The notes: a model not told the origin generated them from the sequence alone. A stretch of DNA of 64,000 nt from Candidatus Hecatella orcuttiae (GCA_002011035.2 MTLY02000001.1:352001-416000); one strand, 5' to 3'. Counted from the first letter of the stretch, positions 5,415 through 56,576 are shown. Numbers and translations: made by a program.

Positions 5415-5900
5415 TCAGGTTAAGGCTCGGGTTATCTCTCTTCTAAGCTCTTCCGCAGTTTTACCCTCCGTGGATATCCCCAGCTCCTCAGCTATCTTAA
5501 CGAGCTTATCTCGGCCTACCTTTAGACTCGGAGGGGTAACCGGTAGAGGAGTGGAGGGCGCCTGTTCTCTTTTTTCAACTTTCAAATTTTTTCCGTACAC
5601 GATTCTTTCTTTAGGCCTGCTCAGAGGAGGAGTCTTCCTTACTGTTTCAGGTTTTTTGGCAGTGGCAACGGGGGGATTCGGGGTGGGGGCTTCAGGGTAC
5701 ACTGCCTTTTGTAGCTCCCTCTCCATTTCCATTCTAGCTTTTTCAAATTCCCCTGTGGCCCTGCCGAGGGCTCGGGCTAGTTCCGGAAGCTTGTTGGTGC
5801 CGAAGAGAAGGAAGAGAATGGCGATTAAGATGATGAACCATTCTAGCCCCCGGATTCCGCCGACTTGTAGGATGAAGTCCAGATTCCCTGAGGTGAGCAT
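5415..5900 (-). CDS. tatA: twin-arginine translocase TatA/E family subunit
   Basis: TM helix then LLFGTNKLPELARALGRATGEF; Pro-rich linker; C-terminal LGISTEGKT helix; true start may be downstream. Confidence 0.85.
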   Translation of the reverse strand: MLTSGNLDFILQVGGIRGLEWFIILIAILFLLFGTNKLPELARALGRATGEFEKARMEMERELQKAVYPEAPTPNPPVATAKKPETVRKTPPLSRPKERIVYGKNLKVEKREQAPSTPLPVTPPSLKVGRDKLVKIAEELGISTEGKTAEELRREITRALT

Positions 5901-6062
5901 GCTGCCTACATTTAACTTTAGTCTCCCTTCCAGCTTATCAAGATTTTCCCTCGAATCCGGAATCCGGAAACGCTGCGGGAACGGGAAAACGTATTTTTGG
6001 CACAGCGTCGGTTTAATTTCAGCTGAGGAATAGTATTAACGGCTGCGAAGCAGGCGCTTGGG

Positions 6063-7859
6063 ATGAGGGTTGCAGTCATCGACAGAGACGTCTGCCGTCC
6101 TAAAGACTGCGGAAGGGCATGCTACCGTTTCTGCCCTATGGTTAGGAATAAGGTCTACGCTGTGAGGTTTGAAGAGGGAGAAGAAAAGCCGACCATCGTG
6201 GAGCCTCTATGCACAGGCTGCGGCATTTGCATCAAAAAATGCCCCTTCTCAGCCCTAAGCATCGTAAACCTTCCGGAAGAACTGGAGGGGGAATGCAGCC
6301 ACCGCTACGGCGCCAACGCCTTTAAGCTCTACAGGCTTCCTGTGCCGGCGCCCTCGAAGGTAACCGGGCTCCTGGGGAAAAACGGAATAGGCAAATCCAC
6401 CGCCCTCCGGATTCTTTCAGGGGAGAGTAAACTTAACCTAGGGGAATTCGCTGAGCCCCCGGACTGGAGTCGGATAATAAGGCGTTTCAGGGGGTCGCTC
6501 CTCCAAGAATATTTCACCAAACTCAGCCGGGGGGAGTTAAAAACAGTTCACAAACCCCAGTACATAACCCGCATACCTCAGCTGTTGAAGGGGGAAGTGG
6601 AAGAAGTTTTGGAGAGGCTGGATGAGCGGGGTAAGATGCGCTATGCGGTGGAGGTCTTGGAGCTTCAGGAACTCTTGGACAGGCCTGTGGAAGTCCTTTC
6701 AGGAGGAGAATGCCAAAGGCTGGCCATAGCCGCCGCCCTCTGCAAGGAAGGAGACGTTTACATTTTCGACGAGCCCTCCAGCTATTTGGATGTGAGGCAG
6801 AGGATTAACGCTGCCAAGGCTATCCGAAGCTTGCTAGGCGAAGGTAAGACGGTGCTAATAGCGGAGCACGACCTAGCTGTCTTAGACTACCTCTCCGATC
6901 AAGTGTGCCTTTTCTACGGAAAGCCGGGAGTCTACGGAGTGGTTTCTCCACCCCAAGGAGTTAGGGCGGGAATAAACATCTACCTCGAAGGCTACCTGCC
7001 CAGCGACAATGTCAGGTTCAGGGATGAGCCTATCCGTTTCCACATCAAGCCTCCGACTCCCAGCTGGGTTTCCACGAAGCCGCTCTTCCAGTGGAGCCGC
7101 CTGCAGAAATCCTACGGAGGCTTCAGCCTGAAGGTGGAAGAGGGCGCTGTCCACGAAGGCCAAGTGGTAGGCGTCCTCGGACCCAACGGCATAGGTAAGA
7201 CTACCTTCATGAAAATGTTAAGCGGGTTGGAGAAGCCGGATGAGGGCTCCGTGGCCAACCCTGAGGAAGTTTCCGTCAGCTACAAGCCTCAATACGTTTC
7301 CACAGACTACCCCGGCTCCGTGGAGGAGTTCCTTAGGTCTTCTGCCGGCGAGGAGTTCGATTCCCCGAGGGTCAAGTCCGAGGTCTTAGCCCCTCTGGGG
7401 TTGGAGGAATTTCTGGAAAGGGATTTTTCAAGCCTCAGCGGAGGGGAAGCCCAGAAGGTAGCCATAGCCGCTTGCTTGGCTAAACGGGCTACGCTGTATC
7501 TCCTAGACGAGCCCAGCGCCTTCCTCGACGTGGAGGAAAGGCTGGCGGTGGCTAGAATCATCAGGAAGACAGCGGAGACTTGGGGTGCAGCGGCCCTTGT
7601 GGTGGAGCACGACGTCATCGTCCAAGACTTCACAGCCGACAGGCTGATACCCTTCTCCGGAACACCGGGAAGAAACGGCTACGCGTCTTCTCCCACCGGC
7701 CTGAGGGAGGGAATGAACTCTTTCCTGAAAGGGTTAGGTGTAACCTTCCGGAGAGACCCCTCCAGCGGGAGGCCTAGGGTTAACAAGGAAAACTCCCAGC
7801 TGGACCGCCGTCAAAAGGCGTTGGGCGAGTACTACTATGTTCCCTCTAGCGGAGAATAG
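6063..7859 (+). CDS. rli: ribosome recycling ATPase ABCE1/Rli1
   Basis: N-terminal 2x[4Fe-4S] Cys motifs, two ABC domains, FRRDPSSGRPRVNK C-terminus. Confidence 0.97.
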   Translation: MRVAVIDRDVCRPKDCGRACYRFCPMVRNKVYAVRFEEGEEKPTIVEPLCTGCGICIKKCPFSALSIVNLPEELEGECSHRYGANAFKLYRLPVPAPSKVTGLLGKNGIGKSTALRILSGESKLNLGEFAEPPDWSRIIRRFRGSLLQEYFTKLSRGELKTVHKPQYITRIPQLLKGEVEEVLERLDERGKMRYAVEVLELQELLDRPVEVLSGGECQRLAIAAALCKEGDVYIFDEPSSYLDVRQRINAAKAIRSLLGEGKTVLIAEHDLAVLDYLSDQVCLFYGKPGVYGVVSPPQGVRAGINIYLEGYLPSDNVRFRDEPIRFHIKPPTPSWVSTKPLFQWSRLQKSYGGFSLKVEEGAVHEGQVVGVLGPNGIGKTTFMKMLSGLEKPDEGSVANPEEVSVSYKPQYVSTDYPGSVEEFLRSSAGEEFDSPRVKSEVLAPLGLEEFLERDFSSLSGGEAQKVAIAACLAKRATLYLLDEPSAFLDVEERLAVARIIRKTAETWGAAALVVEHDVIVQDFTADRLIPFSGTPGRNGYASSPTGLREGMNSFLKGLGVTFRRDPSSGRPRVNKENSQLDRRQKALGEYYYVPSSGE

Positions 7860-7991
7860 CCCACCCATGGGAAGGAACTTCCAGAAGCATATACTCCTCC
7901 CGGGGATTTTCTGCCACATAAAAAACCTATCGCCATATATGGCCATATAAGATGAGACTCGCCCGGTCTGCTGCGGCTCGTTAGGCTGTTT

Positions 7992-8339
7992 TTAGAAGGT
8001 CATTATTGTGAATCCTTCACTCAGCCGGTCTGCGATGTAGATGGGGGCGCCCACTATCTTCACACCTTGTTCCTGAACATCCAAGTCTAAGCCCAGTTCT
8101 CTGACGTTGGCGGAGCACGCGGCTATCTCAACCCCTAAGCCCTTCACCTCCTCTAGGAGGTCTTTGACTTCCCCTGAGAGGTCTAGGGCCAGCCACTCCA
8201 CGCCTGAGCCGTAGAAAAGCAGCCTGATTTCTCTGAGGAAGTCAAGCTTCTTCAGGTCTCGGGTGAGGATCAAGCCCTGCCTCACCCTGTCCTCCCCGTT
8301 CCGGCTGCTGAGGATGACCACCAGCAGTTTTTCACTCAA
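7992..8339 (-). CDS. DsrE-family protein
   Basis: LLFYGSGV and IAACSANV motifs, 115 aa; last gene of the sulfite reductase operon. Confidence 0.7.
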   Translation of the reverse strand: MSEKLLVVILSSRNGEDRVRQGLILTRDLKKLDFLREIRLLFYGSGVEWLALDLSGEVKDLLEEVKGLGVEIAACSANVRELGLDLDVQEQGVKIVGAPIYIADRLSEGFTIMTF

Positions 8340-9147
8340 GGCTGATGTCCCCCAACAAGTCTCTGTAGTGAGCTTCCTTCAACCTTTCCACCTGCAGCCC
8401 AGCGGACATTAGATCTTTCCAAGAGCCGGGGTAAAGCTTAACTTTTTGGAAGCCTGCAAGCCTGAAGGCATAGAAAACAAGCGCCGCGGAGGCTCCGTCG
8501 CTGGAGTAGGTTATTATCTCCTTATCCCGGGATATGAAATGCTCGTCGATGAGTCTTTCCATTTCCTCCCGGCCTGCGAGGACTTTTCCCCTTCCAGCAA
8601 ACATCTTCCAAGGCATGGTTTTAGCCCCCTTGAGGTGACCGTCCAGATAGTCAAGCCTGCTCCTCACGTCGACAAGGACCATGTGGGGGGACCCGGCTTT
8701 CTCCCTGATTTCTTCCCCCGTGGCTACTATGTGGATGTTCTCTCGGACGCTGTGCATTTTGGTTTCTTCAAGAGGCTTCTTCAAACTCACGGGGAGGCCT
8801 CTGTCAGCCCAAGAGCGGAACTCCACCTCGAGGACGGCGACCTTGAAATGGCCTGCCCGCTCCAGAGCCCATGCCAGCCTTGAAGCGTGGGTTCCCCCTC
8901 GGTCGTCGTAGGTTACCACCAGTGTTTCATCTTCCACCCCCAGCTTCCCCAGCAAAGCAGCCACCCTCTCCGGCTGTTCATCTTCGAGAATTCTTTGAAG
9001 AGGCAGAGATACAGCTCCCTTTACATGACCCCTGCGAAAGTCTTCCGCATCCCTAGCGTCCACAACTTTCACCCCCGGGTCCTCAAGCCTTGCGCTGAGC
9101 CATTCAGCTCCCACCAGGGGGTGGGGATACCCGGTTTTCCCGCTCAA
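8332..9147 (-). CDS. tandem-domain rhodanese/sulfurtransferase (catalytic Cys replaced by Ser)
   Basis: DAR..GHVKGA, DVR..GHLKGA, YPGSW; active loop reads YSSDG; TTG start overlaps the sir stop. Confidence 0.85.
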   Translation of the reverse strand: MSGKTGYPHPLVGAEWLSARLEDPGVKVVDARDAEDFRRGHVKGAVSLPLQRILEDEQPERVAALLGKLGVEDETLVVTYDDRGGTHASRLAWALERAGHFKVAVLEVEFRSWADRGLPVSLKKPLEETKMHSVRENIHIVATGEEIREKAGSPHMVLVDVRSRLDYLDGHLKGAKTMPWKMFAGRGKVLAGREEMERLIDEHFISRDKEIITYSSDGASAALVFYAFRLAGFQKVKLYPGSWKDLMSAGLQVERLKEAHYRDLLGDISLE

Positions 9148-10946
9148 GCGGCACACTCACCCCGCGCAGTTTTCGCCACAAACTTCTCTTCACTGCCCCA
9201 GTCCATGTAAGCCTTAGGGTCTTCCCGAGGCGAAGGCAGTTTAGCCGCTTTCTCCAGCTCCCTTCTCAGGTCCTCAGCGTTTTTAATGACCGAAGCTCCT
9301 CCCCCTCGGAGGACCCGGTCGATCCAGTTGTGAAAGTCCTCGCCCTCCGCCTTCTCAGCCTTGTAAAGCTCAAACAGCCTCACCAAAACCTCCGGAAGCT
9401 TTTTGGCGGGAACCCTCATGAAGGGCTTCCCTATCCTCGCATCCAAGCCTGTCTTCCCTCCCAACAGCATCAGATAGGCGGGGGTGAGGATGCCCTCAAT
9501 CCTCTGGGTGGACCCCACCAATCCCACCGCCCCTATGGCGTGATGACCGCAGCTGTTGGGGCAGCCGCTGAGCTTCACCGCCAAATTTTTTAGATCCCCG
9601 TCCATGTCAAGGCCAAGCTCAAGAAACTTTTTCCGAACCTCCTTGGCGACTCGATGGGAATTGGTAATGGCCAAGTTGCAGGAGGCAGTCCCCGTGCAGC
9701 CTACTACAGAGGCCACGGAGAGGGCGCCGGGGCTAGCCAAGCCTGCCTCCTTCAGCTTCCAGTAGACTTCAGGCACATTCCTCCCGGGTATCCACCGGAA
9801 AACCAGACCTTGCAGAGGCGTCACCCGAACCAAACGCTCCTCCGAGTGATTTCGAGCAACCTCAGCAACGGCTCTAACCTGCTGGGCGAGCATGTCGCCG
9901 GCGGGGGTGCTGAGGTAAACCGCGTAGTAGCCTTTCTGCTTCTGGGCTGTGACGTTGGTGGTGAACCATCTCAGGTAGGCCTCATCCTTCACCCCCTGAG
10001 CCGGGTTGAAACTTTCTTCAACCTCCTTGAGGGGTGAACTCGCCTGGGGGAGGCTGAGTCTAAAATTCGCCGGCTGGGTTACTTGGACGATGCGGCGTTC
10101 CCTCAGAACCAGTTCCTTAAACTTTTGGAAACCCATTTCCTTGACCAGATACCTCATCCGGTTTTTATGCATCTTCACCCGGTCGCCCAGCCTGTCGAAA
10201 ACTCTTATCACCGACGCCACTGTCTCGAGAAGCCGGTCTTCAGGCGTGAAATCTTCAAGAAGACCCCCCACATAGGAGGCAGGCCCTAAGCCTCCGCCCA
10301 CGTAGACCCTGAAGCCCTTTACCCTTCGACCACCGTCCTCCCGCTCCTCAGCTACAAGGCCTACATCGTTTAGGGGAGCGAGGCTGCACCATCTCCCACA
10401 TCCGGAGAAATTGATCTTGAACTTTCGGGGAAGATCCTGATTCATGGGGTTTCTCAGCAGATAGCGGGCTGTGGCTAAGGCGTAGGGGGTTACGTCGAAA
10501 GCCTCATGGGGGCAGCAGCCGGCCAGGGGACAGCAGGTCACGTTTCTGACAGTGTTCCCGCAGGCTTCCCGAGTGGTCAGACCTGCTTCAGCCAACCTCC
10601 TCAGGATTTCAGGCACATCTTCGAAGAGAAGCCAGTGGAGTTGAATGTTCTGCCTCGTCGTCAGGTGAAGGCTGCCGATGGAGAAGACTTCCGCCAAGTC
10701 GGCGAGGAGCTCCAACTGTTCGGGGGTGATGACTCCGGCTGGAAGTTTAACCCTAAGGAGGCCGAAGTCTGTTTGAAACCTTTCGCTGTAGATTCCATGC
10801 TGAAGCCGAAACCGTCTGAAATCGTCTTCTCCGAGTTTCCCCTCCCTGAAAAGCCTTAGAACGTGAGCAAACCGCTCAGCTTCCTCCGGCATCGCAAACC
10901 CTAAGCCACCCGCGGAGGCTGCATGCTCTTCTTTTCCCGGATTCAA
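9144..10946 (-). CDS. ferredoxin-dependent siroheme sulfite/nitrite reductase
   Basis: RVKLPAG, HLTTRQNIQ, REACGNTVRN, LPRKFK, CTGTASCNLA, SGCPNSCG. Confidence 0.9.
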   Translation of the reverse strand: MNPGKEEHAASAGGLGFAMPEEAERFAHVLRLFREGKLGEDDFRRFRLQHGIYSERFQTDFGLLRVKLPAGVITPEQLELLADLAEVFSIGSLHLTTRQNIQLHWLLFEDVPEILRRLAEAGLTTREACGNTVRNVTCCPLAGCCPHEAFDVTPYALATARYLLRNPMNQDLPRKFKINFSGCGRWCSLAPLNDVGLVAEEREDGGRRVKGFRVYVGGGLGPASYVGGLLEDFTPEDRLLETVASVIRVFDRLGDRVKMHKNRMRYLVKEMGFQKFKELVLRERRIVQVTQPANFRLSLPQASSPLKEVEESFNPAQGVKDEAYLRWFTTNVTAQKQKGYYAVYLSTPAGDMLAQQVRAVAEVARNHSEERLVRVTPLQGLVFRWIPGRNVPEVYWKLKEAGLASPGALSVASVVGCTGTASCNLAITNSHRVAKEVRKKFLELGLDMDGDLKNLAVKLSGCPNSCGHHAIGAVGLVGSTQRIEGILTPAYLMLLGGKTGLDARIGKPFMRVPAKKLPEVLVRLFELYKAEKAEGEDFHNWIDRVLRGGGASVIKNAEDLRRELEKAAKLPSPREDPKAYMDWGSEEKFVAKTARGECAA

Positions 10947-11239
10947 TTCACCCGCACCCCTCCTGCTGGTTGGGTTTTAGAAAGCAAAAGGTTGGACTGC
11001 GGATTTTCCAGTCTCCATCCAAAAAAGAGATTGAGCCAAAGACCCCTTAGCTTGAAGATGAAGCGGTGGTGAGAAATCTTCGTAGCCGGAGCTGGGGAAA
11101 GCAAAAGCACAGGGCTATCCTTGGCCCCGGAGGCAAACAGGGTCCCCTCTTTCCATCCGCTTCACCTATAACACTGTTATTGGTTGATTATTTAAGAATA
11201 TCGCCCAAAAACTCAGCCGGCAAGCTGAAGGCTCCGAAG

Positions 11240-12493
11240 CTAAGCCGCCAGCCTTCGGGCAGCGACCTTTGCAACAGCGTCCTCCACGAGGTCGTAGGTT
11301 TCCACAGGCTCGATTCCCGCTTCCCTCAGATACTGCTTAGGGCCGTAGCCGATCCTCAGGCAGAGTACGGCTTGACAGTCTTTGAGAAGCTCCACCGTCC
11401 GCAGGAGGCTTTCCTCCTTATCTCCGCAGAAAGACTTTCCAAAACAGTATTGGCCTACGTTTCTCTTTTCCAAAAACTCCGTCGACTGAAGAGAAGCTCG
11501 GTAGATCAGAAAGGAGTCGGCGTGGCCGAAATGCTGGTCCACGAGCCTGCCGCTCTTGGTCGCCACAGCCACCTTTATACCTCCGGCGGGAGAAAGCTCC
11601 CAGGGCTTCTTCTCCCTACGCTCCACCAGCTCTACTGTTAGGTTGTTTCCCAGGAAGCCCACAGCGTCCGATCGGCACTGCCGACAGTGGCGCATCTGTT
11701 TGATGTGAACTTCACACTGGTCTCGCAGTCTCTTCAGCTCAACCAAGCTGGGTTTGCGTAGGCCTTGAAAATCGGTTCCCTCCACTGGAATGAGAGGCAT
11801 GACATTCATCATGAAAGCCCCCCATTTCTTCACCTGCTCAGCAACTTGGGGAAGGTGGCTGCTGTTGACTTCGGGGATCATCACGGAGTTAACTTTGACG
11901 AGAATACCCTCTTCAGCCAGCTTCCTGACGCCCTCCTCTTGCTTGGAGAGCAACAGGGAGGATGCTTCCCTTCCCCAGTAGGTTTTCCCCTCGTAATGAA
12001 CCCAAGAGTAAATTTTTTCCCCCACGGAGGGCTCCACAGCGTTTACGGTGACGGTGACATGGCCTACTCCCAGCTGGAGAATCTGGGGAACCCGCTCGGG
12101 CAACAGCAGCCCGTTGGTGCTTAGGCAGAGAATCAGCTCAGGGTACGCCCTGCGCAAAAGCCTGAGAGACTCTAAAGTCTGCTCGTTGGCCAGAGGCTCC
12201 CCCGGCCCTGCCACAGCTACCACGGTAAGCTGAGGCAGAGAACTCCGAACCTCCGCAACCTTCGCTACGACTTCCTCAGGCCTCATAACCCGGCTGGTTA
12301 CGCCGGGTCGACTTTCGTTTACGCAGTCATAACGCCTATTGCAATATTTGCACTGGATGTTGCACCTTGGCGCAACAGGCAGATGCATCCTCGCATAGGT
12401 ATGGCAAGCGTAGGGGCTGTAGCATGGATGAAGCGCTATCCTATCCTCAGCCTCCCAGCCTACTTTAGGGATAGCAATCTCCCTCGAACTCAT
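11240..12493 (-). CDS. nifB: NifB-type radical SAM protein with C-terminal NifX-like domain
   Basis: All six NifB fingerprints: HPC, CNIQCKYC, ESRP, AGPG, TVTVN, CRQCRSDAVG; C-terminal VAVATKSGRLVDQHFGHA NifX-like domain. Confidence 0.9.
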   Translation of the reverse strand: MSSREIAIPKVGWEAEDRIALHPCYSPYACHTYARMHLPVAPRCNIQCKYCNRRYDCVNESRPGVTSRVMRPEEVVAKVAEVRSSLPQLTVVAVAGPGEPLANEQTLESLRLLRRAYPELILCLSTNGLLLPERVPQILQLGVGHVTVTVNAVEPSVGEKIYSWVHYEGKTYWGREASSLLLSKQEEGVRKLAEEGILVKVNSVMIPEVNSSHLPQVAEQVKKWGAFMMNVMPLIPVEGTDFQGLRKPSLVELKRLRDQCEVHIKQMRHCRQCRSDAVGFLGNNLTVELVERREKKPWELSPAGGIKVAVATKSGRLVDQHFGHADSFLIYRASLQSTEFLEKRNVGQYCFGKSFCGDKEESLLRTVELLKDCQAVLCLRIGYGPKQYLREAGIEPVETYDLVEDAVAKVAARRLAA

Positions 12494-12543
12494 GGGGAAT
12501 CAACTCGTATTGTTCCGCTTCGTAAGGCTTATTGTGAGCCTTG

Positions 12544-12588
12544 TTTTAACAAGTGTTAAAAAAGTATTTAAGTTTAACGGACGTTAAA
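12544..12588. promoter_or_regulatory. two palindromic operators TTTAAC-N4-GTTAAA flanking a TATA-like box in the nifB/HTH divergent promoter
   Basis: TTTTAAC-AAGT-GTTAAAA at 12544-12561 and TTTAAC-GGAC-GTTAAA at 12573-12588, with TATTTAAG between them. Confidence 0.7.
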
Positions 12589-12597
12589 TATTAGATC

Positions 12598-12930
12598 ATG
12601 AGACATCCCTCGGCTGACGTTGCCAGGTACCTTCTCCCGGCGGTTAATGCTCTCATAGCCCGGGAGCTTGTTGAAAAATACGGCTTAAAAAGGTCTGAGG
12701 CTGCCAAAGTCATGGAGGTCACTCCGGCGGCTGTGACCCAGTATCTGAAACTATCGCGGGGCGGGAAAATCGTGGAGCAGCTGGAGGGCTCGGAGAAAAT
12801 CATGCGCATTATTTTCTCCTTAGCTAGGCGAATGCGGACTGGAAAGGTGAACTCGGAAGGTTTCAACTTGGCAATTCGGAGGGTTTGTCGGGAGGCAAGG
12901 ACACTGGGCATAATTCCCTGCCAGCCGTAA
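12598..12930 (+). CDS. HTH transcriptional regulator (COG2522-like)
   Basis: LLPAVNALIARELVEKYGL...AAKVMEVTPAAVTQYLK..RG; two C-terminal Cys. Confidence 0.8.
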   Translation: MRHPSADVARYLLPAVNALIARELVEKYGLKRSEAAKVMEVTPAAVTQYLKLSRGGKIVEQLEGSEKIMRIIFSLARRMRTGKVNSEGFNLAIRRVCREARTLGIIPCQP

Positions 12931-13017
12931 GCTCGCAGAGTCAAAAGGCCGGTGAGTAGGTTTAAAGGAAGAACATGGTTTTCCCGCCTGAACGCAGGGT
13001 TGGGGTTGCTTTCTTCG

Positions 13018-13323
13018 CTAACCTTTAGACTGTTCTCCGCCTCTCAGCTTAGAAAGCTCCTTAGCCAAGAGTTTTAAGGTTTCTCCCTTGGAGTTGATTT
13101 TATCCATTACCACGTAGCCGGCTTCCTTCCACCAGCATCGGGGATAGCGGGCTTCATATTTGGGTTGAGGTGAAAGGTTCAGCCTGCTGGCCGCTTCCAC
13201 GATTTCCTTCAAGCTGGGAGAGGCCACGGCCATCCTTTTGGGAATCTTCCGCCCCTCGCTTCGGCTTCGGGCGATGTCAAAGTAGATGCTCCAAACCACA
13301 ACTCGGCGGTTGAGCTTTCTCAG
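13018..13323 (-). CDS. srp19: signal recognition particle protein SRP19
   Basis: WSIYFD..RSRSEGRKIP, YPRCWW; start either GTG 13299 or CTG 13323. Confidence 0.9.
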   Translation of the reverse strand: MRKLNRRVVVWSIYFDIARSRSEGRKIPKRMAVASPSLKEIVEAASRLNLSPQPKYEARYPRCWWKEAGYVVMDKINSKGETLKLLAKELSKLRGGEQSKG

Positions 13324-13369
13324 AGGCTTCTCCGTCTCCTCTGGGGTGAATCTAAGCTGGACTGCCCGT

Positions 13370-13762
13370 CTAAGCCTGCTTGGGCTTCAGCAGCACAGCG
13401 TTAAGGACTCCGTGCTGGCCAGGTCTTGAGGTAACTTTGGCCGTGCCTATCTCCGTCTCCAGAATGGTTCCCTTTGTGATGATTCCCTGCCTGTCATAGG
13501 CGACATTGGAGGGGTTGCTTATAACCCTCAGGATTTGAGCAGTTTGAGTCTTTCCAGTTTTAGGATTGGAAACCTGAACCTTGCCAGCGGCTCTCAGACG
13601 CAGCTTGTAGTTGCCTCCTCGCCCCCTTTTTGGAACCCTCAAATCCTCTCCGACCACCGTCTCAGCGGGGTAGCCGCCGCGTTCAAACTTTCGCCTACCT
13701 CGGTAGGGAGTCTTCGCGCCTCCCGTCCTCTTCCGCTTGTGGAGGTCTGAATGCCAAGCCAT
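13370..13762 (-). CDS. rps8e: 30S ribosomal protein S8e
   Basis: HKRKRTGG, IITKG, VTSRPGQHGVLNAVL. Confidence 0.97.
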   Translation of the reverse strand: MAWHSDLHKRKRTGGAKTPYRGRRKFERGGYPAETVVGEDLRVPKRGRGGNYKLRLRAAGKVQVSNPKTGKTQTAQILRVISNPSNVAYDRQGIITKGTILETEIGTAKVTSRPGQHGVLNAVLLKPKQA

Positions 13763-13968
13763 AGACGTTCCTTCCAGTTTACGGTATAAGCGAAACTACG
13801 CGTTCAGCTTAAATTTAAGCATGACTATGCGCGATGGTAGCACCTGATGCTACTTGAAATATGGCGGAGTATTTAAGCTTAGCATCGGCGGGACCTTAGC
13901 GAAAGGGGGGTAGATAGTTTTATATACGACAATAAGGGAAAAAAAGGTTCTAAGGTGAAACTATAAAA

Positions 13969-15042
13969 TTGGCTAGTGAACCACGTAGGAAGGCCCTGAA
14001 ATACGGCATCGTCGCCATTGTCGCCGCTGTGGTGGCCGGTGTGGGCGGCTACGCCGCCTGGCAGGCCGCGAGGCCAGCTCCAGCCCCAACACCTACTCCT
14101 GCTCCCGTGGAAAAACCCATTAAAGTGGCCGCCATATATGTCACACCGCTTGAAGAGCCGTGGAATACGGTTCTCCATGAATCGTTAACTTGGGCTCAAG
14201 AAAATTTGGGTATCGAATACGTCTATTCGGAAAAAGTTGACACTGCGGATGCGGAGAGGGTGGCAAGAGAATTCATCGATGCGGGTGTCGATGTACTCTT
14301 CACTCACAGCTGGGGGTACCATCCGGTGGCCATTAAGCTCGGAGAGGAGTTCCCCGATCTAGCCCTAGCTCAAGGCTCAGGCCCCACGGACATTGAATGG
14401 CCGCCGAACATTGTGCTCTACGACTATTGGATTCAGGACGCTGCATACCTTGCTGGGATGGCTGCGGGCATGATGACCAAGGGCGACCAGATAGGCGTCG
14501 TAACAGCCTACGCTGTGCCCGACGTGAACAGGCTGGTTAACGGCTACATTGCCGGCGCTAAATCGGTCAACCCCAACGTTAAGGCTTCGGTGGTATACTT
14601 GGAAAGCTGGTTTGACCCTGTCCGCGCAAAAGAAGCTGCACGCGCCATGATCGACGGTGGGGTGGACTTCATATACGCTGAACGATTTGGAGTGTTCGAA
14701 GCGATAAGAGAGGCTGACAAGGTCGGTCAAGTATACGCCTTCGGGAACATTGTGGATCAGTCACCCCTAGACCCAGAGGTTGTCCTAGCCAGCATAGTTT
14801 GGGATCTACACTCGTTCGTGGAACTCCTGGTGGAGATGGCGAAGACGAACACATGGCAAGGCGGAATTTATGATTGGGGGATGAAGGAAGGCTGGGCTAA
14901 GCTGGTGTGGAATGAAGACCTCAAGGCGAAAGTGGTACCGAAAGATGTGCTGGAGGCCATAGAAGCAAAACAGGAGGAAATGCTGAAAGGCGAATTCGCA
15001 GCGCCCATCTACGAAGACTGGGTTCCGGAACGCTGGGAATAA
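13969..15042 (+). CDS. BMP-family (nucleoside-type) ABC substrate-binding protein with Tat signal
   Basis: RRKALK Tat motif plus hydrophobic helix; BMP motifs (YLAGMAAG, SWFDP, GVDFIY). Confidence 0.85.
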   Translation: MASEPRRKALKYGIVAIVAAVVAGVGGYAAWQAARPAPAPTPTPAPVEKPIKVAAIYVTPLEEPWNTVLHESLTWAQENLGIEYVYSEKVDTADAERVAREFIDAGVDVLFTHSWGYHPVAIKLGEEFPDLALAQGSGPTDIEWPPNIVLYDYWIQDAAYLAGMAAGMMTKGDQIGVVTAYAVPDVNRLVNGYIAGAKSVNPNVKASVVYLESWFDPVRAKEAARAMIDGGVDFIYAERFGVFEAIREADKVGQVYAFGNIVDQSPLDPEVVLASIVWDLHSFVELLVEMAKTNTWQGGIYDWGMKEGWAKLVWNEDLKAKVVPKDVLEAIEAKQEEMLKGEFAAPIYEDWVPERWE

Positions 15043-56463: not shown

Positions 56464-56576
56464 GGGCCCGTGGCGCAGCTGGATAGAAAGCCCCCCATAA
56501 AGCGCATCGGCCCTCTATGCGTAACAAGCTCGGGGGAAGCCGGGGGTCAGGGGTTCGAATCCCCTCGGGCCCGCCA
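56464..56576 (+). tRNA. tRNA-Arg(UCU) with a D-loop intron (56485-56500) and a canonical 37/38 intron (56518-56537); C at position 33
   Basis: GGGCCCG/CGGGCCC acceptor, G73+CCA, A20, TCGGC/GCCGG anticodon stem, TTCGAAT T-loop, BHB CCTC/GGGG. Confidence 0.82.

Follow-up and report, generated by a model that had tools for sequence, protein, structure and literature searches.

What does a NifB do in an archaeon that carries no nitrogenase? The question is raised by a 64,000-nucleotide stretch of the Candidatus Hecatella orcuttiae genome (GCA_002011035.2 MTLY02000001.1:352001-416000, here called the window), in which a minus-strand open reading frame (ORF) at 11240-12493 encodes a 417-aa protein that joins a radical S-adenosylmethionine (SAM) NifB core (approximately residues 15-290) to a NifX-like domain (approximately residues 306-411). 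The genome of this Bathyarchaeon is 1.75 Mb long, consists of 3 contigs, and is 97.12% complete. To our knowledge, the carbide cluster built by NifB was known until 2025 only from nitrogenase and its relatives. One report describes this [8Fe-9S-C] L-cluster in the methyl-coenzyme M reductase (MCR) activation complex, bound to McrC and Mmp7, with an archaeal NifB as the supplier where nitrogenase is missing (PMC12176620). A 2026 review points to NifB homologues in archaea that have neither nitrogenase nor the nitrogenase-like Nfl enzymes, and counts 'archaeal proteins of unknown identity' among the open targets (PMC13474568). We conclude that the nifB-nifX gene encodes a real NifB in a setting that no known acceptor system explains.

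The nifB-nifX gene is intact. Its product scores 500.7 bits against TIGR01290, the NifB equivalog family (cut-off 343.65), and Pfam assigns PF04055 to residues 39-220 and PF02579 to residues 315-411 (64.5 bits). A first-pass annotation of the window had credited the protein with all six NifB fingerprints and a NifX-like domain, and the profile matches and translation bear this out: HPC occupies residues 22-24, CNIQCKYC 44-51, ESRPG 60-64, AGPGE 95-99, TVTVN 147-151 and CRQCRSDAVG 270-279. These six motifs, which we take to carry the ligands of the K1 and K2 clusters, are invariant columns in an alignment with the closest relatives. Solved NifB chains align at 332 bits (6y1x_A) and 267 bits (7bi7_A), and the ligand-bearing stretches are near-identical. 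Two proteins from a large collection, P0002 (67% identity) and P0003 (63%), retain every motif as well as the NifX domain, which argues that selection acts on the two-domain protein. We infer that NifB-NifX can convert K-clusters into the [8Fe-9S-C] L-cluster. Some public gene calls for this locus (P0001, 348 aa) start 69 codons late and would lose HPC and the radical-SAM cysteine motifs; the 417-aa product is also on record, as P0121.

None of the known L-cluster acceptors is present in the genome. Three kinds of user are known: NifDK/NifEN, the nitrogenase-like Nfl/Mar enzymes, and the McrC/Mmp7 MCR-activation complex. PF00148, the profile that covers NifD/K/E/N, Nfl, Chl/Bch and CfbD, has 0 matches in the whole genome. 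PF00142 (NifH) gives only four weak P-loop matches there, the best of which (34.4 bits) is at the level of generic P-loop ATPases; the same search gives matches in all 14 control genomes, and a real Bathyarchaeial NifH scores 394.7 bits for comparison. Searching the genome by tblastn with Bathyarchaeial NifH, NifD-like and NifK-like proteins returned nothing at 1e-5. The first-pass annotation had reported no nifH, nifD, nifK, nifE or nifN in the 64 kb, and these searches for Nif, Nfl and Cfb homologs extend the absence to the whole genome. A role for this NifB in MCR activation was considered and is ruled out. McrA, McrC (MCR_C, PF04609) and Mmp7 (TIGR03274) have 0 matches each in the whole genome, and the DUF2117 and DUF2124 marker proteins of an MCR-bearing relative (G002), used as tblastn queries, found nothing in it at 1e-5, so the published role cannot apply.

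The negative acceptor results are informative, since the same searches do detect acceptors in relatives. In G002, which belongs to the same family, nifB lies amid a McrC-like gene, mcrA, mcrB, DUF2124, DUF2117, an AIRS-like gene and mmp7. In six Bathyarchaeia of another family (f8), nifB lies within an operon that contains nifH, nifB, two PF00148 genes and a homocitrate-synthase-like gene. The six f8 operons (L233-L235 and L237-L239, in G346, G307, G367, G323, G228 and G345; for example L233:8109-13861) provide the 394.7-bit NifH score, and no nifEN was seen within them; they represent a minimal nitrogenase-type set in a TACK (Thaumarchaeota, Aigarchaeota, Crenarchaeota and Korarchaeota) lineage. 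Two of these genomes, G346 and G307, each carry an additional, divergent NifB-like gene at a distance of 5-11 kb.

The locus does not result from misassembly, and nifB is native to the chromosome. Four minus-strand genes stand in a row here, encoding a DsrE-like protein, a rhodanese-like protein, a sulfite reductase (Sir) and NifB-NifX, and a 110-aa ORF for a putative helix-turn-helix (HTH) regulator diverges from them. All five ORFs were found where the first-pass annotation had placed them. One flank carries the archaeal housekeeping genes for SRP19 and ribosomal protein S8e (Pfam), and the other a 598-aa protein with two ATP-binding cassette (ABC) ATPase cassettes and an N-terminal Cys-rich stretch, ABCE1-like as read from the sequence. 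Run X6 is not flagged as a possible source; one of its contigs links nifB, the HTH gene, SRP19 and S8e with 0 differences to the window, and another carries the ABCE1-like ABC-ATPase gene together with dsrE and the gene for the rhodanese-like protein, also with 0 differences. A single contig of run X2, a possible source, covers 5500-14058. Composition is typical of the genome for every gene and for the whole block (G+C content z-scores <1, tetranucleotide ranks 0.1-0.66). It is the linkage on the X6 contigs without differences, together with this typical composition, that identifies nifB as native. Recent transfer was also considered on compositional grounds, and neither the z-scores nor the tetranucleotide ranks give a signal of it. 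ABCE1 occurs in 12 of the 13 other family genomes; at the seven of these loci that were examined, none of the other genes in the initial 24 kb of the window is found nearby. Gene order is thus too scrambled for synteny to be informative about an inserted island.

NifB is patchily distributed among the relatives of this archaeon. The family consists of 14 genomes, this one and 13 others, and the order comprises the same 14. TIGR01290 matches 7 of 61 relatives (this genome counted), and with the NifB protein as a query, 23 of the 401 genomes sampled from the class give a match. This genome is the only one whose match reaches the NifX domain; in the other NifB-bearing genomes it ends by residue 292. 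The earlier statement that a NifX domain is unusual in archaeal NifB is accordingly upheld within the class (1 of 23). Among the core-only cases, two genomes that are 98-100% complete (G022, L015:8620-13341; G015, L016:7973-12698) lack PF00148 and McrA and have nifB directly upstream of genes for a methylenetetrahydrofolate reductase (MTHFR) C-terminal domain, MTHFR, and the NiFe-hydrogenase small and large subunits, which is another orphan NifB setting.

The closest proteins to NifB-NifX in the large collection are P0002, P0003 and P0004 (53%), all on contigs of 4-5 kb. They are followed by a broad field of two-domain NifBs at 45-49% identity that are mostly bacterial, one of which is labelled Bathyarchaeia (P0008, 48%). 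Scans of genome and metagenome contigs found the closest fused form at 48% and the closest core at 55%. In a full-length tree (94 rows, NifX columns included), NifB-NifX forms a clade with P0002 and P0003 (support 100) that falls inside the fused, mostly bacterial group, separate from the 23 Bathyarchaeial rows that have the core only. A tree of the radical-SAM core (69 rows) recovers the same three-member clade (support 99). However, grouping the trio with the other Bathyarchaeial NifBs is not rejected by an approximately unbiased (AU) test on the core (p = 0.616), and the log-likelihood of the constrained core tree exceeds that of the quick free tree by 7 units. The proposed acquisition from bacteria agrees with the full-length grouping, but the core comparison does not favour it over a place among the other Bathyarchaeial NifBs, and the composition is typical of the genome.

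The region between nifB and the divergent ORF contains a putative operator. This divergent promoter region of 104 bp (12494-12597) has two TTTAAC-N4-GTTAAA palindromes (12545-12560 and 12573-12588) that bracket an AT-rich, TATA-like stretch at approximately 12560-12573. The shorter form TTAAC-N4-GTTAA occurs twice in the window, compared with 0.03 occurrences expected from shuffles, and these are the only two copies in the whole genome. Similar palindromes, TTAAC-N3-GTTAA, are present in one to three copies no more than about 90 nt upstream of the regulator at 9 of the 11 closest regulator loci, where they also flank an AT-rich box. The putative operator is therefore both unique in the genome and conserved in the regulator family. 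The HTH protein is most likely an autoregulated repressor, and its predicted operators also cover the divergent nifB promoter.

The ORF itself (12598-12930, plus strand) encodes an all-helical protein of 110 aa, a truncated member of a Cys-rich family that occurs throughout the Bathyarchaeia and has neither a Pfam entry nor a solved structural relative. It has no Pfam match at E 0.01, and weak HTH_3 matches occur in all seven members of its alignment (best E 2e-5). The AlphaFold2 model is all-helical with a predicted local distance difference test (pLDDT) score of 84.5, and it has no fold match in the PDB at E<=0.001. Relatives of the regulator are present in 313 of the 401 class genomes, and this genome has four matches. 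The closest relatives, from families f14 and f8, are 42-57% identical, longer, and share a set of conserved cysteines: PPC, LCxxC, a further C, and a C-terminal CxC.

Genes of sulfur metabolism recur around the regulator at the 11 closest loci (L220-L230). A Cys/Met-metabolism pyridoxal phosphate (PLP) enzyme (Cys_Met_Meta_PP) is present at three of them (L220, L224 and L226), a LuxS-like gene at five (the same three, L229 and L230), and one shared small protein at six (those five and L222, where a gene of the dihydrodipicolinate synthase (DHDPS) family is also adjacent). L221 has a divergent cysteine-synthase-type PALP enzyme and a ThiI-like protein, L227 a divergent DsrE_2 gene and a class-V aminotransferase, and L225 and L228 a NifX-like protein and a TrmO-domain protein; nothing was recognised near the regulator at L223. 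Because the closest regulators share the half-sites of the nifB region and neighbour genes for cysteine, methionine and persulfide metabolism, expression of nifB probably responds to the status of sulfur, cysteine or Fe-S clusters. HTH homologues also lie 4-5 kb from nifB at 4 of 160 loci (L074, L098, L178 and L195), an occurrence that we treat as chance. The regulator that the first-pass annotation regarded as dedicated to nifB is thus a plausible one, and its family is tied to sulfur amino-acid genes.

Downstream of nifB, three overlapping minus-strand genes look like one operon. The first, sir (9144-10946), encodes a 600-aa siroheme-type sulfite/nitrite reductase of the monomeric NirA/Sir kind, with PF01077 and PF03460 twice each. 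It overlaps the rhodanese-like gene (8332-9156) by 13 nt, which in turn overlaps the gene for a DsrE/DsrF-like protein of the MTH1491 type (7992-8339) by 8 nt, and the operon assignment is based on these overlaps. A spacer of 293 nt (10947-11239, same strand) separates nifB from sir. Directly after the nifB stop codon it contains a terminator-like hairpin of 7 pairs (11229-11212) followed by TTTTT, and farther on it has AT-rich, TATA-like boxes that may serve as a promoter. On the basis of the hairpin and T5 run, nifB is probably monocistronic and outside the sir operon. Rfam at the gathering threshold detects only two tRNAs in the window and nothing in this spacer.

The three proteins differ in how well they fit their names. 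Sir has the cysteine motifs CTGTASC and CPNSC (CX5C...CX3C) expected for siroheme and a [4Fe-4S] cluster; it falls below every NCBIfam equivalog cut-off, and its best score is 258.6 bits to the NirA family, versus a cut-off of 523. Its closest named relatives are the 'nitrite/sulfite reductases' of Nitrososphaerales and Nitrosocaldus (52-55% identity), and P0123 is a relative at 85%, on a contig of 3597 nt, a length shared by none of the full-length or short NifB hits. Sir matches only 5 of the 61 relatives, this genome counted, and those matches are distant (34-41% identity); it was not found in any of the 13 other family genomes. An ATP sulfurylase gene and a gene of the 3'-phosphoadenosine-5'-phosphosulfate (PAPS) reductase type are present on other contigs, so the substrate of Sir is probably sulfite and the enzyme is accounted for as the step that completes ordinary sulfate assimilation. 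The rhodanese neighbour has both of its rhodanese domains (PF00581 twice), but Ser replaces the catalytic Cys of the C-terminal domain loop in alignments to 1uar and 1e0c and its only Cys is residue 2, which makes a thiosulfate or persulfide relay through this protein unlikely. The DsrE-like protein matches PF02635 at 27.3 bits (cut-off 22.7) and 1l1s_A at E 4.9e-5, with the 'ACS' cysteine aligned.

A gene island rich in Fe-S functions lies elsewhere on the same contig, outside the window (G000 C1:477951-488455; L242), and is a candidate acceptor set. It encodes an IssA-like NifX-DUF5320 protein and a second NifX-like protein, both recognised by Pfam, and a third, weaker PF02579 match (37 bits). 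It also includes two MinD-type ATPases (one confirmed, with ferredoxin domains), a radical-SAM protein, a DtxR-type repressor, DUF134 proteins, a molybdate-type binding protein, two DUF364-type proteins (including a DUF364/DUF4213 protein), and an MBL-like protein read from the sequence alone. In another member of the family (G012), the genes beside nifB (L017:4096-6510) encode a 217-aa membrane protein, a NikR-type regulator and a TauE/SafE-family exporter; a further neighbour, judged by its sequence alone, reads like an ArsR-type HTH protein.

We see roughly an even chance that the following account is correct: nifB-nifX is native, intact and probably transcribed on its own, the Bathyarchaeon that carries it lacks all three known kinds of L-cluster user, and the cluster acceptor is probably of an undescribed kind. 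By homology, the NifB core would fuse two [4Fe-4S] units into the [8Fe-9S-C] cluster with the carbide supplied by SAM, and the fused NifX domain would hold this NifB-co (L-cluster) for hand-over. Transcription of nifB would start in the 104-bp divergent region at the TATA-like box bracketed by palindromes, where the HTH protein most likely binds and represses both its own gene and nifB, such that nifB expression would follow sulfur, cysteine or Fe-S status. The sir-rhodanese-dsrE operon would be separate from nifB and would provide the last step of assimilatory sulfate reduction. Several observations weigh against this account. The genome is 97% complete and not closed, no acceptor was found, and the idea of a cluster made for an unknown user rests on gene integrity alone. 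The regulator keeps only C97 and C108 and has no C-terminal CxC tail; having lost most of the conserved cysteines, it may no longer detect the signal of its relatives. The spacer of its palindromes is 4 nt long, versus 3 nt in the relatives, and the 11 regulator loci are kin (mostly f14) that amount to about four independent contexts, three of them sulfur-related. We consider less likely than not a more specific form of the proposal, in which some non-methanogenic, non-diazotrophic archaea have a third, undescribed class of protein with the [8Fe-9S-C] cluster and this locus is the cluster's dedicated supply gene under a TTAAC-box repressor that responds to sulfur or cysteine status.

Other accounts give nifB different partners or none. 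The first-pass annotation proposed that nifB, sir, rhodanese and dsrE form one pathway that channels sulfite or persulfide into a carbide cluster for a non-nitrogenase client. The genes are indeed adjacent and co-oriented, the regulator's family is linked to sulfur genes, and the nifB-sir spacer contains a related half-palindrome, TAACA-N1-TGTTA, that is one of 6 in the genome; PMC10701300 documents sulfite as a source of the ninth sulfur of NifB-co. Yet no Sir, rhodanese or DsrE homologue occurs in flanks of up to 10 kb at any of 175 other nifB loci (15 Bathyarchaeial, 80 from species genomes and 80 from metagenomes; those of the closest relatives, P0002 and P0003, are not among them), and Sir is absent from all 13 other family members, so the predicted conservation of this neighbourhood fails. 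The nearest named relatives of Sir are Nitrososphaeria, and the affinities of NifB differ. The spacer hairpin and T5 run interrupt the string that nifB was said to head, the rhodanese lacks its catalytic cysteine, and sulfate assimilation already accounts for Sir. The nifB-sir linkage is not conserved, the sir operon is a neighbour of nifB and not a conserved partner, and a single pathway is quite improbable. What survives of the suggested sulfur-regulated carbide-cluster pathway is the probable sulfur-linked regulator, through its family neighbours and palindromes, and not the sulfur gene string.

The gene could instead be an idle leftover, inherited from an MCR-bearing or nitrogenase-like ancestor or received in a partial transfer, that now has neither acceptor nor role. 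The MCR-bearing G002 in the same family, the patchiness of NifB in the class and the failure to find an acceptor are all compatible with such a history, which we nevertheless consider unlikely: the reading frame is intact with every cluster ligand retained, the three-member clade keeps both domains at 63-67% identity, a regulator of its own and a unique operator pair accompany the gene, and its product differs from the core-only NifB of G002 (49% identity). It is harder still to credit hand-over of the cluster to the NifX-fold carriers of the Fe-S island. Besides NifB itself, PF02579 has only three matches in the genome, which cluster within about 12 kb in this island (two confirmed as proteins by Pfam), the domain content of the island speaks for it, and nifB of G012 adjoins a homologue (39% identity) of the island's 217-aa membrane protein. 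However, the island is approximately 115 kb from nifB, and such clusters are common in anaerobes that have no NifB. Least probable of all is that a known acceptor escaped detection, because it lies in the approximately 3% of the genome that is unassembled or has diverged beyond the reach of the profiles. Completeness of 97.12% over 3 contigs leaves some room for this, but five independent family profiles and the lineage-matched queries were all negative where the same searches were positive in relatives, and the nif, nfl and mcr sets each comprise several genes over many kilobases. The account that we prefer, an intact NifB-NifX whose cluster may go to a user of an undescribed kind, fits these observations best.

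Elsewhere in the window, the segment 57900-60500 has a strongly positive GC skew (0.36 over 58-60 kb) and G-rich ORFs that lack Pfam matches; no tandem repeats were found in it, and one peptide stretch, read from the DNA only, resembles an AbrB/SpoVT-type motif. Before this segment, a tRNA match of 110 nt (56464-56573) is longer than the 71-position model.

An intact nifB-nifX gene that is predicted to be separately regulated and has no known acceptors is a clean place to seek a further user of the cluster; alternatively, this genome could show that NifB may be retained without any acceptor. Within one archaeal class, NifB can now be mapped to three settings: with MCR, with nifHDK and homocitrate synthase, and as an orphan. 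The regulator family, with its clear palindromic operator and sulfur amino-acid neighbours, is a directly testable by-product. Our literature search found no earlier description of an archaeon with an intact NifB-NifX but with none of nitrogenase, Nfl and MCR, although the NifB tree of PMC12176620 may include this lineage.

NifB-NifX shares features with three known groups of proteins. The two-domain NifBs of bacterial diazotrophs (Frankia, Thermincola and Sporomusa) have the same architecture and motifs and are 45-49% identical over 93-100% of the length; those proteins serve NifEN and NifDK, whereas this genome encodes no NifH, D, K, E or N. The core-only archaeal NifBs of methanogens and alkanotrophs (6Y1X and 7BI7) are the ones that the radical-SAM core resembles most, as the 332-bit alignment to 6y1x_A indicates, and the NifBs of Methanotrichaceae are 50-55% identical to it. 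These NifBs likewise occur in archaea without nitrogenase, but the present genome differs in having no McrA, McrC or Mmp7, and its NifB has a NifX domain that methanogen NifBs are said to lack, with one exception in a fused NifB from a Methanomethylophilaceae genome (L037). The third group, MarB, IsrB and NflB of the nitrogenase-like sulfur-acquisition enzymes (PMC13474568), are also NifB homologues in a sulfur-related setting. Their genes lie with nflHDK-type genes, of which this genome has none, and IsrB consists of the radical-SAM domain only, whereas NifB-NifX combines this domain with a second one.

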